From Escherichia virus TH47, in sequence record MT446416.1: a stretch of DNA of 64,000 bases. One strand, 5' to 3'. The translations under genes were made by a program, and so were the position numbers. Below are positions 2,282 through 62,754 of this stretch, piece after piece (within the stretch, counting starts at the first letter, position 1; the number at the start of each line of letters is the position of its first letter). Below the pieces are notes generated by a model. That model made no database searches and had not been told where the DNA came from. It saw only the letters and a program-made list of their open reading frames with translations.

Positions 2282-2337
2282 GTATTTTCATCCAAATAAA
2301 AAGCCCAGATAATATATCCGAGCTTTAGATTTATGTT

Positions 2338-2664
2338 TTAACGACCAAATGTTTGAGCAGAGATGCGTGGATCAGTGTCAGACACCAAACTTACTGCTGC
2401 TGGATAATCCACGAGATTCATTTTAATACCATCAATCTCAATAGTTCTCGACCAACGACCGTGGTCAATTAGAATCCATTGTCCTTCTTTGATATCGGTA
2501 ATGTCTTCACCAACAGAATATACTTTAGCCCAACGGCAACGAATACCACGTATCTTACCATCATCACTTGTCAGTACAATACCACCTGCGGTTTTACGCT
2601 CACCATGTTCTAGTTCAGTTACAATAACTTTACCTTTACAAGCTGTCATTACTTTATTGGTCAT
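2338..2664 (-). CDS. GroES-like co-chaperonin (Cpn10 fold), copy 1
   Basis: KVIVTELEHGERKTAGGIVLT aligns with GroES [20 protein letters not shown]; C-terminal EGQWILIDHG...IEIDG like GroES VGDIVIF...EKIDN. Confidence 0.65.
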   Translation of the reverse strand: MTNKVMTACKGKVIVTELEHGERKTAGGIVLTSDDGKIRGIRCRWAKVYSVGEDITDIKEGQWILIDHGRWSRTIEIDGIKMNLVDYPAAVSLVSDTDPRISAQTFGR

Positions 2665-2667
2665 GAA

Positions 2668-3012
2668 TTACTCCTGATCTTTAGTTTTTGCTCGGCGTGG
2701 AGCTTTCTTCTCTTCAGATACTTCAACTTCTGGTTCTTGTGGTTGAACTTCAAAGCTTTCATCATCCCATACTTCTTCAGTACTATATTCAGTACTGTGA
2801 TGTTGGTGTTCAGGAATGAAATCAGGAATTTGCATTTCACGTTCTTTTTCTTGGATTAGTTCTTCACGGGTTTTAATGACCGTACCACCTGAACCAATCT
2901 TATCACCACGAGCATTTAGGTTTGCATTACCTAGTGCTACTTGGTGCTGGTTTTGATACTTTAGCATATCCATATCAATGGTGGTTCCACGATAAGTTGT
3001 GTGTTTTGACAT
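2668..3012 (-). CDS. hypothetical protein (acidic C-terminus)
   Basis: 114-aa ORF; conserved-looking LGNANLNARGDKIGSGG segment, unassigned. Confidence 0.4.
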   Translation of the reverse strand: MSKHTTYRGTTIDMDMLKYQNQHQVALGNANLNARGDKIGSGGTVIKTREELIQEKEREMQIPDFIPEHQHHSTEYSTEEVWDDESFEVQPQEPEVEVSEEKKAPRRAKTKDQE

Positions 3013-3075
3013 ATAAAAATCCTTTTTCTATGTGAGTGATATAATGCCTCAAACAACATTATATCACATGTTTTT

Positions 3076-3594
3076 CTACCATTTCAAAAATTCATTTACA
3101 TCTAGTTTATACTTCAAAGAATCAACCATATGCAAATCAATCAGGAACAAACAATACGAAGCCACTGAACTGCCACGTCCAAGACCCCAAAAAATATTGT
3201 GCTCTTCCATATAATCAACTAACCAGATCATACATCTTAAAAGCTTAGTCATGTTGTAATGTTCAAACAAATCAATCTCATACATTACACGTTCACGGGC
3301 TTCATCCGATGTACATTTCTGTAAAAAGTACTCACGCAAGTTGATATTATCGTACACTGGATCATAACGCCATAGCTCATGGTTTTTATCATGTTCTATT
3401 GTATAATCCAGCATACGCTGTTCTAAACCAAATTTTTTACAATTATCGTTAAATTTCAATCGTTCCGGTTCATCAATCTCCTGTAGCTGTAAGTACTGAA
3501 TATCTGCACCACAGTTGATTGCATACACGACTGCATTAAGGTTACATTTTACATCACCATTGGGACTTATAAATCTGTTTCCTTGTACTTTCAT
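3076..3594 (-). CDS. hypothetical protein
   Basis: 172-aa ORF; purine-rich AAGAAGAAAAATG start context. Confidence 0.4.
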   Translation of the reverse strand: MKVQGNRFISPNGDVKCNLNAVVYAINCGADIQYLQLQEIDEPERLKFNDNCKKFGLEQRMLDYTIEHDKNHELWRYDPVYDNINLREYFLQKCTSDEARERVMYEIDLFEHYNMTKLLRCMIWLVDYMEEHNIFWGLGRGSSVASYCLFLIDLHMVDSLKYKLDVNEFLKW

Positions 3595-6301: not shown

Positions 6302-6313
6302 TATTTATATAAA
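6302..6313 (-). promoter_or_regulatory. T4-late-type promoter motif (TATAAATAAT on minus strand)
   Basis: Minus-strand TATATAAATAATC; same core as the motif upstream of the major capsid gene. Confidence 0.4.
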
Positions 6314-10673: not shown

Positions 10674-12838
<2,165 letters not shown>

Positions 12839-12855
12839 TTTTAGGTTATATACTG

Positions 12856-13918
<1,063 letters not shown>

Positions 13919-42250: not shown

Positions 42251-43318
42251 TTACTTACCTTGTTGTTTCAAACGAGCAACTAGTGCAGATGCAGAAAGTT
42301 GTTCTTTTGGAGCTTCAGCTACTGGTGCTGGTGCAGTAGCTACTGGTTCAGCAGCAGGAGTAGGAGTAGCTACTGGTGCTTGCGGTGCAGGAGTTTGTGC
42401 AGGAGCAGGTTGTTGTACTGGAGCTTGTGGAGCAGGTTTGTTTTCACTAATAGTACCAGTTGTTGGTTTTTGTACACCTGCTGGACGGTAAGCGAAAGCC
42501 CAACGTGCAGGGTCATAAGGTTTACCATCAACAGATGCTTCGAACATTTCTTCGATAGCTTTTAGTTCTTCTGGAGTTGGTTGTTTTGGCATAAAATCAT
42601 TTAGATTATATAGACCAAACTTTTCAATCGCTGCTAGTTCTTCTTCATTGAGTGGACGCTCGGACATGGAGAATTGAGACATGTCATAGCTATTGTAACC
42701 ACCACCATTCTTAGTTTTAACAATACCAAAGTCACGACCATGAATATAGTGAGTTGGTAGTTCTTTGATGCCTGGATTTAGCAGGATAGATTTAACTTTA
42801 TCAAAGATATCTTTGTTAGCTAGGATACGACGGATTGGGTTTTCTGGAGCAATATCGTCTTTTACTGCTACGCTATCAGGAGCAACGAAACATTGCATTA
42901 GATAGGTTTTCTTTTTCCAGTAACGACCAGCCATTGCTTTCAGTTCTTCGTTTCCAGTTTCATTCGCACTTTGGAACCATTGACGTACTTCTTTAAGAAT
43001 TGGACATGATTTAGGAACCCACATTTCGTTACATGGTACTTGAACGGTAACTTTATCAGTGTGCATACCAACAATACCTTGGAACGTTAGGTTGATCATA
43101 TCACGTTCACGCCAGAAGAATGGGTTAGACTCATCAGCATCTGGTAGAAAACGTAGGTTTAGTGGTTCATTGTAAGGGACATTCCAGAAAGCTAGGAAAG
43201 AATCGGCTTTACGGTCGCCTGTAAATGTACCATTCTTCTGTGCTTCTGCTTTTTCTTGTTCAGCTTTTAGTTTTGCACGAATTTCAGCTAGAGTTTGCAT
43301 ATTGGGCTTCCTTGTCAT
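42251..43318 (-). CDS. gp32: single-stranded DNA-binding protein (T4 gp32-like)
   Basis: LNLRFLPDAD (T4 VIRFLPSKND) and zinc-site cysteines; Pro/Ala-rich C-terminal tail. Confidence 0.8.
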   Translation of the reverse strand: MTRKPNMQTLAEIRAKLKAEQEKAEAQKNGTFTGDRKADSFLAFWNVPYNEPLNLRFLPDADESNPFFWRERDMINLTFQGIVGMHTDKVTVQVPCNEMWVPKSCPILKEVRQWFQSANETGNEELKAMAGRYWKKKTYLMQCFVAPDSVAVKDDIAPENPIRRILANKDIFDKVKSILLNPGIKELPTHYIHGRDFGIVKTKNGGGYNSYDMSQFSMSERPLNEEELAAIEKFGLYNLNDFMPKQPTPEELKAIEEMFEASVDGKPYDPARWAFAYRPAGVQKPTTGTISENKPAPQAPVQQPAPAQTPAPQAPVATPTPAAEPVATAPAPVAEAPKEQLSASALVARLKQQGK

Positions 43319-43467: not shown

Positions 43468-48707
<5,240 letters not shown>

Positions 48708-50160: not shown

Positions 50161-50192
50161 AGAAAAGGAGAGCTTTTGCTCTCCTTTTTTAT
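50161..50192. terminator. bidirectional Rho-independent terminator
   Basis: Stem ggagagc/gctctcc with tttt loop, T-run downstream and A-run upstream; sits between convergent genes. Confidence 0.6.
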
Positions 50193-50914
50193 TTGTATGA
50201 ACGGAACCCTTCAGGTAAACCAGGTAGATTCTCTAACCCTTCGTTCGCATTCACTAGCTTTACGTCATAATCATCACTGAAATCATCCGTAGCTAGTTTA
50301 CGCCCCATGTCTCTAACGAAGTTGTCAATAATTTCTTCTTCGTCATTACCTGGATGACCTTCCGCTTTTAACTTTTTCCAAAAGTATTCATTATAATCAA
50401 AAACAAATTCAACTTCATTTGTTTCTGGATTAAGTACTACATCCAAATCAATCCAAGGTTCTTTACGTAAAGTAAAGATTTCCTTTGAATACTCTTGTTG
50501 TGTAATCTCTTCATAACGATATGCAAACTCGATAGCTTTAAGACGTTTGTCATCACCATCAGGCATTAGTTCGATTACTTCCATATCATACTCTTTTTGA
50601 GTAATTGCACCAGTACTCAATTTGGCATCAAGTAATTTTACATTATACTCATCACGGGTAATCTTGGAATACTTCAATTGTACATCTGCCTGTGCTATTA
50701 GATAATCAAGAGTTTCTAATACATTGTATTTCTTTTTGATATCCAACTGTGCTACATCAACTTCATATGGTGTTAGATATGTAAGTTCTGCAACTAACAT
50801 ATCAGCTTCATAATCATCGTTATAGTAGTATGCTTTCGCAATCTCTTTCGCTTTTCCAGAAAGTCCCCAGTGAGCGGGGACCATCCAGAAAGGAATAAAC
50901 CTTTTTTTAGCCAT
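50189..50914 (-). CDS. hypothetical protein
   Basis: ATG 50914 lies 2 nt after the stop of the upstream GroES-like gene; about 241 aa. Confidence 0.4.
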   Translation of the reverse strand: MAKKRFIPFWMVPAHWGLSGKAKEIAKAYYYNDDYEADMLVAELTYLTPYEVDVAQLDIKKKYNVLETLDYLIAQADVQLKYSKITRDEYNVKLLDAKLSTGAITQKEYDMEVIELMPDGDDKRLKAIEFAYRYEEITQQEYSKEIFTLRKEPWIDLDVVLNPETNEVEFVFDYNEYFWKKLKAEGHPGNDEEEIIDNFVRDMGRKLATDDFSDDYDVKLVNANEGLENLPGLPEGFRSYK

Positions 50915-51209
50915 TTGATTTCTTACCAAAAATTTCTTCAATTTTCATCACATAATATGTGTCTTCACCACCACCAAGATCTTCAGTGATAGGAGTGTTT
51001 AGTGATGAACGACCGAATACAACCATATCACCAACACAAATATTATGTTCTGCAATTTGTCCATTAGGTAGTACTTTACCTTCACCAACTGAAATCACCA
51101 TACCAACACATGGTGGTTCAACGTTTCCTAGGATAATACCACCAGTACTTTTATTCTGTGCTTCAATTTGACGAACCAGTACATAATCGTTAATCATTTT
51201 AATTTTCAT
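50907..51209 (-). CDS. GroES-like co-chaperonin (Cpn10 fold), copy 2
   Basis: NDYVLVRQIEAQNKSTGGIILG and VGDMVVFGRSS align with GroES; start ATG 51209 with GGAGG RBS. Confidence 0.6.
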   Translation of the reverse strand: MKIKMINDYVLVRQIEAQNKSTGGIILGNVEPPCVGMVISVGEGKVLPNGQIAEHNICVGDMVVFGRSSLNTPITEDLGGGEDTYYVMKIEEIFGKKSNG

Positions 51210-51210
51210 A

Positions 51211-51417
51211 TCAGTAACCTCCAGTGTTTGCAAACCATTTACCACGGAAATAAAGATTAGCACCTTTATCACCTGGGGTAAAAACTTCCAACTTCATAGT
51301 CTTCTCACCATTACATTGTGGACAATCATGAGGTTCTTCACGATTGGCAATTTTTACAATCTTTTCTAAACTGTGTTTACATTCTTCTTTTTCACAACGA
51401 TATGTATATAATGGCAT
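51211..51417 (-). CDS. zinc-ribbon protein (FmdB-like)
   Basis: YTYRCEKEEC...CPQCNG pattern; 68 aa; stop 1 nt before the GroES-like start. Confidence 0.45.
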   Translation of the reverse strand: MPLYTYRCEKEECKHSLEKIVKIANREEPHDCPQCNGEKTMKLEVFTPGDKGANLYFRGKWFANTGGY

Positions 51418-51485
51418 TTTTTTGTCTTCCTTTACTTATTTTTAAATCAAAAATTTGGGGAACTCCATGTTCCCCATTATTTATA

Positions 51486-59180: not shown

Positions 59181-60179
59181 TTACTTAGTTTTCCATTCTT
59201 TTATCATGGTTAGTACTAAATCCAAATCTTCTTCATTGAAAGTTTCAGTGTATCCATCTGGAAAATCTTCTTTTTCAACAACTTTATTAGTTATAGTACC
59301 TTTTATTTTTTGTTCGAGATCTTGTGCTTCTCTTCGTGTTTCAAAGTCCTCAATTAACAAAACATCGTGTTCAGTATGAGCATAATGTTTTTGTTGACTA
59401 ATTCTACGGTTGATATCATTAGTTACACCCAATTTATAAAATACACCTTTTGTTGGGTGAGTTATTTTTTGTACATATAAAGTTGATGGCTCACGCATAG
59501 TACCTTCACTTTCGTTACATACTGGACAATGTTCTCTATCAGTTTTTCTGAAATTCGCTAGGGTTTTATGTATTTTTACATCTTTATGTAGTGTGCATCC
59601 AAAAACACATTCAGTATGGTGATAATCATAAGTTTCGTCATACTGAAAATCATCATAGGTGTACTTGTCACCATGAATTTTCTTCAACTCTTTCGTTATA
59701 TCATTAGCATCTTTTCGTTTGGAAGAAATCGTTCGTTCTTTACCACACTCATAACATCCACTAAACCTACCTAAAAATTCATCAAATGATAAGACGAAAT
59801 GCTTCTTATGTTTTTTACAATTAAATTCAACATCGGATTTTTTCTTACCTATAAATTTAACTACTTGTACGAATTCCCAAGGTTTGTTCTCATTTGCTAT
59901 CCTAGTTAAACATGCGTGTTTGTATTGGCTGGCAGTTTTTGGGACACTAGTTCCATTTTGTTGTTTCATTATACCACAATGTTGACATTTTTTTCTCGAT
60001 GAAAAGTTGTCTATACTACATGACAATATAGAAGACTTACAATCCCAGCATGTGTATGAAAAATTACTTTTGGCATTTTTAAAATTAATTATTTTATGAA
60101 ATACAATGTTTAAGTTATTAGTTTTTATTATGTTAAGTATCTTATCCACATAATGTTGTTCATCTAATTTTGAAGCCAT
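59181..60179 (-). CDS. putative homing endonuclease (zinc-ribbons + T5orf172-like domain)
   Basis: Cys/His modules and KIHGDKYTY motif parallel the 39822 gene; C-terminal GVFYKLGVTNDINRR...GYTETF is T5orf172-like. Confidence 0.5.
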   Translation of the reverse strand: MASKLDEQHYVDKILNIIKTNNLNIVFHKIINFKNAKSNFSYTCWDCKSSILSCSIDNFSSRKKCQHCGIMKQQNGTSVPKTASQYKHACLTRIANENKPWEFVQVVKFIGKKKSDVEFNCKKHKKHFVLSFDEFLGRFSGCYECGKERTISSKRKDANDITKELKKIHGDKYTYDDFQYDETYDYHHTECVFGCTLHKDVKIHKTLANFRKTDREHCPVCNESEGTMREPSTLYVQKITHPTKGVFYKLGVTNDINRRISQQKHYAHTEHDVLLIEDFETRREAQDLEQKIKGTITNKVVEKEDFPDGYTETFNEEDLDLVLTMIKEWKTK

Positions 60180-60317: not shown

Positions 60318-61493
60318 TTACATGAAAGTAACGTTTTTGATAGCGATTTTGCTGTAGTAGTCAGCAGCATTACCAAGAGATGAAGTACTGTCGGTTAGCT
60401 GAACGTAGCCATAGCGTGTTAAAAATGTCGTGACTAGCTCACCAGTGTTAGGGTCCATTACAGTACCGGAAGCCATTAGTGGGATGTATGGGCAATAGAA
60501 CACACCAGCATCAGTTTCAGCATTACCTTTATAACCAATCAAAATGTCCTCGACATCGCTGGCATACGTGTCTACAAAAATACGCATGGTGCTGTTTAGA
60601 GTACCAACAAATTTAACGTTAGTTGGAGCTTCGAAAGTACCTTCAGTAGTACGTGCAAAACTAGAAGTAGTTGCAGACTGTAGAATGGTTAGAGCGGTTG
60701 GAGAAACAACAGCCCAGTTCGCAGCACCACGTTTGGTACGACGAGCAACTTCGTTCGCTTGACGGTTGATTAGGGTAGCTAGAGCAGCGTGCTCGTCACC
60801 AACGAAGGTCGCAACACCAGTAACTTTAGATTGGTCATAAGTTACAGCAGCAGCACCAGGTAGTGCACGTAGACGGCTTAGTAGCTCTTGGTCGATTTCA
60901 ACGGTAACTTCTTGAGCGATTGCAGCCATTAGTTCAGCTTCAACGTCGATACCATGTTGGGATTGTGCATCTTGTGCAGATTCAACAGTCCAACGTGCAG
61001 ATAGACGACGAGATTTCGCTTCAACAGTTTCACGTAGAATACGGATGTTAACGCGACGACCCATAGTACCTTCTAGTTGACTAGTAGGAGCAGCTTGTGG
61101 GTTGCTGTTGTCTGCGTTTAGGTCACCAGTATAAGACTTAGCGATTTTGTATGGAGAAAGCATTTCTTCACCAGCGATAACACCAGGAGCGTTGTCAGCA
61201 TATTGAACACGTAGGGTGTGGATCTGACCAACTGGGCCAGTCATTGGCTGAACACCGATGATTTCGTTAGCGATTACGGTTGGCATAACACGACGCATAA
61301 TTGGTAGAATCACTTTGTTTAGAGTAGCGATGTTACCAGCGGTGGTTGCACCAGAAGTAGCAGATTCGTTTAGCATTAGTTTACGATGGTTATCAAGTAC
61401 GGTTTCCATTACGGACTTACGAGTACCTTGTAGACCTTCAACTAGTTTCTCTTTAACTGCTACCCATTTGGATTCATTTAGTAGTTGTGACAT
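60318..61493 (-). CDS. gp23: major capsid protein (T4 gp23-like)
   Basis: GVQPM motif, VEAKSRRLSARW and GYKGNAETDAGVFYCPYIPL match T4 gp23 blocks. Confidence 0.9.
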   Translation of the reverse strand: MSQLLNESKWVAVKEKLVEGLQGTRKSVMETVLDNHRKLMLNESATSGATTAGNIATLNKVILPIMRRVMPTVIANEIIGVQPMTGPVGQIHTLRVQYADNAPGVIAGEEMLSPYKIAKSYTGDLNADNSNPQAAPTSQLEGTMGRRVNIRILRETVEAKSRRLSARWTVESAQDAQSQHGIDVEAELMAAIAQEVTVEIDQELLSRLRALPGAAAVTYDQSKVTGVATFVGDEHAALATLINRQANEVARRTKRGAANWAVVSPTALTILQSATTSSFARTTEGTFEAPTNVKFVGTLNSTMRIFVDTYASDVEDILIGYKGNAETDAGVFYCPYIPLMASGTVMDPNTGELVTTFLTRYGYVQLTDSTSSLGNAADYYSKIAIKNVTFM

Positions 61494-61537: not shown

Positions 61538-61545
61538 TATTTATA
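61538..61545 (-). promoter_or_regulatory. T4-late-type promoter TATAAATA upstream of gp23
   Basis: Minus-strand CTATAAATAATATCATA 45 nt upstream of ATG; T4 late consensus is TATAAATA. Confidence 0.5.
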
Positions 61546-62746: not shown

Positions 62747-62754
62747 TATTTATA
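62747..62754 (-). promoter_or_regulatory. T4-late-type promoter TATAAATA upstream of gp22
   Basis: Minus-strand AAAATATAAATATTTG about 50 nt upstream of ATG. Confidence 0.4.

Follow-up and report, generated by a model that had tools for sequence, protein, structure and literature searches.

The gp31 protein of bacteriophage T4 is the textbook example of how a virus can remodel the chaperonin cage of its host, and why GroES fails with the T4 capsid protein gp23, a protein of 521 amino acids (aa), is still debated. Folding of gp23 needs GroEL together with gp31, with GroES being no substitute, whereas gp31 and CocO are able to replace GroES for all essential functions in E. coli (PMC3012670). 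Deletion of the roof beta-hairpin of GroES is the hallmark of gp31 and CocO and has been tied to a larger folding cage, and a glycine followed by three hydrophobic residues has been defined as the motif contacting GroEL (PMC5649160). The plastid protein Cpn20 has two co-chaperonin domains in tandem, and Arabidopsis Cpn10(1) is functional only when it forms hetero-oligomers with Cpn20 (PMC4242682). Among jumbo phages, two GroES-like open reading frames (ORFs) were reported in 2017 in Pectobacterium phage vB_PcaM_CBB and likened to gp31 and CocO (PMC5259590), and the HSP10 proteins of these phage groups have been suggested to recruit host HSP60 (PMC7824862). Here the analysis is of two co-chaperonin genes in a 64,000-nucleotide (nt) stretch of Escherichia virus TH47 (MT446416.1), referred to as the window. 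ORF1 (2338..2664; minus strand, as are all window genes given with coordinates below) encodes a 108-aa roofless, long-loop protein of the Cpn10 fold with a gp31-like architecture, and ORF2 (50907..51209) encodes a roofed protein of the GroES type, 100 aa from its ATG. Taken together, the evidence somewhat favors a reading in which the two would be non-redundant lids for host GroEL, ORF1 serving in capsid folding and ORF2 as a late, GroES-type lid.

The initial annotation had proposed that two distinct genes encode GroES-like co-chaperonins, both having a mobile loop and a beta-barrel core, and this proposal was borne out by sequence profiles, predicted fold, conservation and public annotation. 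The same annotation had held that a profile search assigning either ORF to a non-chaperonin family would speak against it; both ORFs instead scored above the gathering cut-off of the Pfam Cpn10 family (PF00166). The match of ORF2 covered profile positions 1-92 of 93 (61.1 bits, E=1.1e-16), and that of ORF1 was confined to residues 8-65 (22.6 bits against a cut-off of 21.1, E=1.1e-4). A six-frame scan with the hidden Markov model (HMM) showed no third Cpn10 gene in the window. ORF1 has a single-domain GroES beta-barrel fold of the Cpn10 superfamily. The AlphaFold model of ORF2 had a predicted local distance difference test (pLDDT) score of 77.5, and its best 36 Foldseek matches were all GroES, Cpn10 or gp31, with 29-37% identity to bacterial GroES and GroES in the GroEL complex as the best match. 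Both genes are preceded by strong Shine-Dalgarno sequences (AGGAG at -7 from the ATG of ORF1 and GGAGG at -8 from that of ORF2).

The two peptides singled out by the initial annotation were located at residues 24-32 of ORF1 (KTAGGIVLT) and 20-28 of ORF2 (KSTGGIILG), within regions where model confidence falls: pLDDT was 62 and 52 in the blocks spanning residues 21-40 of ORF1, whose mobile-loop region comprises residues 21-43 (2536..2604, minus strand), and 52 in block 21-30 of ORF2. The predicted GroEL-binding tripeptides are I29-V30-L31 after G28 in ORF1 (2572..2580, minus strand) and I25-I26-L27 after G24 in the mobile loop of ORF2 (51129..51137, minus strand). The glycine and the three hydrophobic residues were kept in 36/36 members of the ORF1 family and 23/23 members of the ORF2 family, with the tripeptide positions occupied by I, V or L and rarely by A or M in both. 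Each family also has features of its own. In the ORF1 family, a DDGK..GIR.RW signature is invariant or nearly so. The mobile loop of ORF2 is two residues shorter than that of GroES and carries a conserved E-P-P-C after the tripeptide, and the coliphage subgroup of the ORF2 family has a short LGGGED insertion near the C-terminus.

The two architectures were told apart by measuring three segments over both family alignments, namely from strand 1 to the tripeptide, from the tripeptide to a ‘VG’ anchor, and from ‘VG’ to the next anchor, which spans the roof. The lengths were 17/19/18 residues for E. coli GroES, 21/20/11 for T4 gp31, 18/23/9 for the ORF1 family and 17/17/18 for the ORF2 family. All 36 rows of the ORF1 alignment had 23 residues between tripeptide and VG and 9-11 in the roof segment, and the roof segment was 18 residues in all 23 members of the ORF2 family, equal to E. 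coli GroES. From strand 1 to VG, the loop region covers 40-41 residues in the ORF1 family, 41 in gp31 and 36 in GroES. On the basis of these lengths, the ORF1 type lacks the roof hairpin and has a loop region of gp31 length. At the position of the GroES roof hairpin, ORF1 has a short turn (residues 52-61; 2482..2511, minus strand), as seen from both the segment lengths and hhalign, with 9 residues in place of the canonical hairpin that is found in ORF2 (residues 42-60, GEGKVLPNGQIAEHNICVG; 51030..51086, minus strand; 18 residues as in GroES). Alignment of the two family profiles by hhalign gave a probability of 67.6% and opened gaps of 7 residues at the loop and 9 at the roof.

Pairwise, ORF1 and ORF2 shared 34% aa identity over 41 residues only. 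On these comparisons the two are not recent duplicates, and their description in the initial annotation as two diverged copies of one gene had to be abandoned in view of this short region of identity, the different architectures and the different phyletic ranges. ORF2 resembles E. coli GroES and bacterial Cpn10 (PF00166; PDB 1AON) in its full-length Cpn10 match, its roof length and its G-G-I-I-L loop, sharing 37% identity with E. coli GroES over 67 aa (E=1e-14), matching GroES chains in the PDB with E values of 1e-10 to 1e-11 and matching phrog_3188 (‘co-chaperonin GroES’) with E=1e-26; it differs from bacterial GroES in that its gene belongs to a phage, shares an operon with a virion protein gene and has no groEL beside it. 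Matches of ORF2 to the NCBIfam GroES models (E values up to 8.7e-15, best score 54.7 bits) fell under every equivalog cut-off (96-215), pointing to a long-standing phage lineage rather than to recent capture of groES from a host. The best NCBIfam GroES score of ORF1, 15.3 bits, was also below these cut-offs. As judged from sequence, therefore, both ORFs are divergent phage lineages rather than recent captures of host groES.

The link between ORF1 and gp31 draws on a PHROG HMM, hhalign and fold searches. The HMM of phrog_931 (‘head morphogenesis’, the gp31 family), which gave E=3.7e-50 for T4 gp31, 0.022 for GroES and 0.024 for ORF2, matched ORF1 with E=3.7e-20 (72.8 bits, profile positions 1-80 of 109), in a PHROG that may itself include Rak2-like members. 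In hhalign, the ORF1 family aligned with a T4-like gp31 profile at 94.5% (E=7.9e-8) through the roof region without the 9-residue gap, and with a broad gp31 profile, including Acinetobacter, Aeromonas, Vibrio and Citrobacter phages, at 93.7%. Fold searches gave a tie between gp31 and GroES. In PDB sequence searches with ORF1, alone or as a family profile, T4 gp31 was not retrieved and only marginal, insignificant GroES matches were obtained (E=0.14 for the single sequence, 0.014 for the profile). Alignments of ORF1 with gp31 end at about residue 70, and the gp31-type C-terminal third (NVPHP...KFVTCHYK) is absent from ORF1, whose C-terminal part reads GRWSRTI...LVDYP...SD. Overall, ORF1 resembles T4 gp31 (PDB 1G31, 2CGT) and RB49 CocO in its Cpn10 fold, size (about 110 aa), roofless form, 41-residue loop region and tripeptide, and differs from gp31 in having no detectable pairwise similarity, an unrelated C-terminal third and its own RW/GRW signature. 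The gp31-like architecture of ORF1, as deduced from the alignments, is robust. The phrog_931 and narrow-profile hhalign results were also considered as proof of membership of the gp31 clade, a use weakened by the broad gp31 profile and by the HMM and BLAST scores given below.

The genomic setting is not that of T4, which the initial annotation had taken as its frame of reference. The window is 98-99% identical to the jumbo coliphages Turkey3, Ecwhy_1, vB_Ec-M-J, fEgEco12 and CMSTMSU (approximately 350-385 kilobases, kb) and about 82% identical to PBECO4, 121Q and phAPEC6, and these identities place it in the Rak2-like (Rak2/PBECO4/121Q-type) group. A T4-type head module is nevertheless present in the window, comprising a Gp23-family major capsid protein of 391 aa (60318..61493; PF07068 E=9.5e-90, phrog_138 E=6e-98) and an adjoining S77 prohead protease. 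The setting of ORF1 is like that of gp31 in its Gp23-family capsid protein, its E. coli host and the lack of a detected phage GroEL, and unlike it in the jumbo Rak2-like genome, which carries a second, GroES-type gene.

The initial annotation had also called for the distribution of both genes in related phages, and the two types were found to co-occur across the Rak2-like clade. The ORF1 type was present in 88 phage records, covering all Rak2-like enterobacterial phages as well as the PA5oct group, Atu_ph07, SCTP-2 and Phosso, and an exhaustive profile search returned 618 cluster representatives at E<=1e-3, or 280 at the stricter E<=1e-10. The ORF2 type was narrower, occurring in Rak2-like phages of Escherichia, Klebsiella, Salmonella, Erwinia, Yersinia, Cronobacter, Pectobacterium, Serratia and Xanthomonas and in one Vibrio phage, and was not seen in the Pseudomonas phage group. 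In genomes with the ORF2 type the two were one-to-one (for example, 33 Escherichia records each), and they were also found on the same metagenomic contigs; this co-occurrence across the clade argues that both genes are maintained by selection. From this distribution, the ORF1 type looks like the core lid of the clade and the ORF2 type like an addition kept by the enteric and Vibrio branch. An interpretation of the mobile loop as a host mimic, suggested by a proline after the tripeptide in Pseudomonas-phage members, was dropped on finding that the PA5oct protein reads GGIIFTDD.

No phage GroEL was detected in the Rak2-like coliphages: in a tblastn search with E. coli GroEL, Escherichia (33 Rak2-like genomes) was not among the groups listed, the smallest of which comprised 7 records. 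Any chaperonin partner would therefore be host GroEL, in line with the recruitment of host HSP60 suggested for HSP10 of these jumbo phages (PMC7824862). Substrate specialization and use of host GroEL, both raised in the initial annotation, fit this finding and the different promoter types described below. Among the clade members seen here, only the marine Rak2-like Vibrio phage 2.275.O._10N.286.54.E11 (MG592671.1) had a complete phage chaperonin set, consisting of a GroEL 69% identical to E. coli GroEL and both co-chaperonin types at three unlinked sites (206909-208471, 42309-42650 and 344737-345021; our loci L007 and L008).

The two genes lie in different neighborhoods. ORF1 comes second in a small gene unit made up of a sigma-70-like promoter match (TTGAAA-18-TATAAT with the TG of an extended -10, 11/12; 3058..3087, minus strand; a consensus match only), a conserved 114-aa gene of phrog_14844 with the motif VA(L/V)GNAN(L/M)NARGD (2668..3012, 3 nt upstream of the ORF1 start), ORF1 itself and, directly after its stop codon, a terminator-like hairpin with a 12-base-pair (bp) stem and a T run (2300..2326, minus strand). 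The unit is flanked by a stand-alone gene for a DNA polymerase III alpha (PolIII-alpha) fragment of about 170 aa (DNA_pol3_alpha; 3076..3594) and by a clamp loader gene. The PolIII-alpha fragment and phrog_14844 genes were always found ahead of the ORF1-type gene, in coliphages, in Vibrio phage 2.275.O, where the phrog_14844 homologue is in the same position with 56% identity, and in the metagenomic loci L010, L018 and L020. The ORF1 promoter was also considered as a possible member of the recurrent divergent RpoD-like ‘TGAAACG’ class of CBB, of which it is the only instance in the window, looser matches lying inside genes.

ORF2 follows, with a 1-nt gap, a gene for a 68-aa zinc (Zn)-ribbon protein (51211..51417; PF09723, E=6e-11) and precedes a virion structural protein gene of phrog_13349 (50189..50914), the ATG of which overlaps the ORF2 stop codon by 8 nt (ATGGCTAA); because of this overlap, ORF2 and the structural protein gene are probably translationally coupled. 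The structural protein is a candidate ORF2 client on the strength of this arrangement, and a homologue (28% identity, E=3e-25) also adjoins the ORF2-type gene in Vibrio phage 2.275.O. The operon is closed by a bidirectional terminator-like hairpin (50163..50188, minus strand), and a T4-late-type promoter motif, TATAAATA (51478..51485, minus strand), lies 61 nt upstream of it. T4-late-like motif sites were found at 6302..6309, 51478..51485, 61538..61545 and 62747..62754 (minus strand). Of the five copies of TATAAATA in the window, four precede a gene by 39-61 nt, and the genes so placed are the capsid protein gene, a 371-aa head-module gene (phrog_10922), the gene for a virion protein of about 800 aa and the ORF2 operon. 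The shorter ATAAATA, with further sites at 12811, 14809, 29114, 48725, 48788, 58450 and 58797, was intergenic at 11/15 sites (5.2% of the window is intergenic), 12-110 nt upstream of starts, mostly of structural genes. Only the placement of TATAAATA and the intergenic enrichment of ATAAATA are informative here. In CBB and GAP32 the same motif has been proposed as a late promoter and a gp55-like sigma factor is encoded (PMC5259590), and the (T)ATAAATA pattern is consistent with late promoters of a gp55-type system in the jumbo phage studied here. By motif matches, ORF2 looks late and structural-gene-like and ORF1 early or middle. Between TATAAATA and the Zn-ribbon/ORF2 operon there is a perfect 8-bp GC-rich hairpin (51456..51476; TGGGGAAC...GTTCCCCA), terminator-like on both strands, which could terminate transcription of the sliding-clamp gene or give the late transcript a stem at its 5' end.

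Under the reading of two non-redundant lids, ORF1 would be made from the small replication-region unit behind its sigma-70-like promoter and would act as a heptameric lid on E. coli GroEL, folding the Gp23-family capsid protein, a client proposed by analogy with T4. ORF2 would be transcribed from the T4-late-type promoter, in the operon with the virion structural protein, and would provide GroES-type lid activity at a late stage of the long infection cycle of a jumbo phage, its role being to serve other phage clients, possibly including the coupled structural protein, or else to replace host GroES or sustain the supply of GroES. What the analysis establishes is the identity, fold, architecture, conservation and co-occurrence of the pair and the lack of a phage GroEL in the group; for both lids, GroEL binding, heptamer formation, clients and timing of expression are inferred.

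Several observations weigh against this reading. With regard to ORF1, the Pfam match is barely over threshold and restricted to the N-terminal 60% of the protein, and neither GroES nor gp31 has an equivalent of the invariant R44-W45 and G69-R70-W71 or of the C-terminal third. The broad gp31 profile also aligned with the ORF2 family at 90.4%, ORF1 was marginally nearer to GroES than to gp31 in plain HMM-to-sequence and BLASTP comparisons, and the loop extension follows the tripeptide in ORF1 and precedes it in gp31, so that the architecture shared by the two proteins may be convergent rather than due to common descent. With regard to expression, the promoters are assigned by motif match only, TATAAATA occurs no more often than expected over the window as a whole (5 found against 7.5), and the hairpin described above stands between this motif and the ORF2 operon. 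With regard to function, the argument from a bigger cage is weaker here because the capsid protein has 391 aa against the 521 aa of T4 gp23, and the need for a second, GroES-type lid is not obvious because gp31 and CocO can replace GroES.

This last point also bears on the rival that survives best, in which both proteins would be generic GroEL lids and the second gene would add supply or cover other hosts or temperatures with no specialization for clients. The same GroEL-binding motif is present in both ORFs, gp31 and CocO can take over all essential GroES-dependent folding in E. coli (PMC3012670), and the relatives PA5oct, Atu_ph07, SCTP-2 and Phosso have the ORF1 type alone. However, the roofed and roofless architectures are each strictly conserved in their own family, the two genes are found together throughout a deep clade with only about 34% local identity between them, their promoter contexts and neighbors differ and, in T4, GroES cannot replace gp31 for gp23, so that simple redundancy or dosage appears unlikely.

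A second rival takes its main evidence from multi-domain relatives of the two proteins. ORF1 and ORF2 are single-domain proteins encoded 48 kb apart, and two Cpn10 domains in one polypeptide were found in distant metagenomic relatives only (L010:922-1840, L011:1867-2532, L018:6001-6627, L019:3097-3723 and L020:5413-6501). Among the best matches of the ORF1-family profile, protein P0152 consists of a GroES-type domain followed by an ORF1-type domain and P0186 has the reverse order (both metagenomic, with a full-length GroES-type domain), and P0140 and P0142 contain two and P0141 three ORF1-like domains. All multi-domain genes that could be placed were at the orthologous locus, with L010, L018, L019 and L020 showing a PolIII-alpha fragment, a small unknown gene and the co-chaperonin gene, and L010 also has a separate 99-aa single-domain GroES-type gene just upstream of the fusion gene. 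P0140 was recovered from two independent metagenomes, and the two mixed fusions were seen once each, on short contigs. In L018 and L019, an AAA+ clamp-loader-like gene downstream of the tandem co-chaperonin (L018:6697-8943, L019:3793-6039) is apparently interrupted, with faint intein-splicing matches and with a TnsA-like endonuclease ORF separating its halves.

The fusions raise the possibility that roofed and roofless subunits might share one ring. ORF1 and ORF2 would then form hetero-heptamers on GroEL in the manner of plastid Cpn10 and Cpn20, with a partly roofed dome set by the subunit ratio, and such mixed lids would let the phage tune cage geometry as infection proceeds, with the fusions as hard-wired versions of the same complex. 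The natural fusions and ORF1-type tandems at the orthologous locus, the plastid precedent (PMC4242682) and the appearance of Chlamydomonas Cpn11, Cpn20 and Cpn23 (7EKQ chains) among the top PDB sequence matches for ORF1 and for ORF2 speak for this proposal. As in plastids, several co-chaperonin paralogues occur in one compartment, and the single-domain and two-domain genes of L010 recall Cpn10 and Cpn20. Unlike plastid Cpn20, the two proteins of the window have one domain each and come from separate, unlinked genes, and they apparently belong to different expression classes; each fusion of a GroES-type with an ORF1-type domain is a single observation on a short contig, and a fusion proves that the domains can work together, not that separate proteins mix. 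We regard hetero-heptamers of ORF1 and ORF2, and the tuning of the cage that they would allow, as decidedly improbable. Least probable of all, and very doubtful in our view, is that ORF1 was recruited elsewhere, for instance to the replication module, leaving ORF2 as the only protein acting on GroEL, for which one can cite the marginal and partial Cpn10 match and insignificant PDB sequence matches of ORF1, its own invariant residues and distinct C-terminal third, conserved neighbors that are the PolIII-alpha fragment and clamp loader and not head genes, and the occurrence of the GroES fold in dehydrogenases.

At the level of annotation the gene pair is already known. For each ORF, fEgEco12 and vB_Ec-M-J have a deposited protein of 100% identity under the name ‘co-chaperone GroES’; in RefSeq, the names given to the pair of 121Q, RaK2, GAP32 and CBB are ‘head morphogenesis’ and ‘co-chaperonin GroES’. 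The pairs in 121Q, RaK2, GAP32, fEgEco12 and CBB (CBB_131 and CBB_268), among others, are orthologous to ORF1 and ORF2. Unlike the present analysis, the CBB publication did not tell the two architectures apart and contained no distribution analysis, context analysis or experiments; papers on fEgEco12, phAPEC6, Sharanji and PA5oct contained nothing about either gene. The division into roofless and roofed types, the contrast in expression context, the phyletic asymmetry and the fusion proteins were not found in the literature searched. The value added here lies in the two-architecture split, the difference in expression context and the fusion proteins of relatives. As the result of a genome scan it is ordinary, the genes being real, conserved and annotated, and it amounts to a tidy natural experiment rather than a surprise. 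A coliphage with both lid types in genetically tractable E. coli offers a built-in comparison of the lid features that decide client specificity, and would also show what a long-cycle jumbo phage needs from the folding machinery of its host.

Some other genes of the window are worth recording. Directly downstream of the capsid protein gene, a 332-aa ORF (59181..60179) carries a C-terminal T5orf172/MUG113 domain (E=1.3e-5); fEgEco12, the nearest relative with an annotation, has small genes for a hypothetical protein and a GIY-YIG nuclease in this interval instead, and the window is about 1 kb longer there, which suggests a mobile nuclease-like insertion varying between strains. The large terminase region (approximately 44800..47100) corresponds in fEgEco12 to three consecutive, partly overlapping coding sequences (g367-g369; L005:16881-19183) labeled Gp17-like DNA packaging protein, terminase large subunit and large terminase subunit, which suggests that the terminase gene is split or frameshifted, and the same arrangement was remarked on for CBB (PMC5259590). 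A gene for the translation initiation factor IF3, also noted for the clade in the CBB paper (PMC5259590), is found in public annotation at approximately 13400..13900 beside a ‘protease adapter protein’ gene (fEgEco12 g413; L006:18279-18782).

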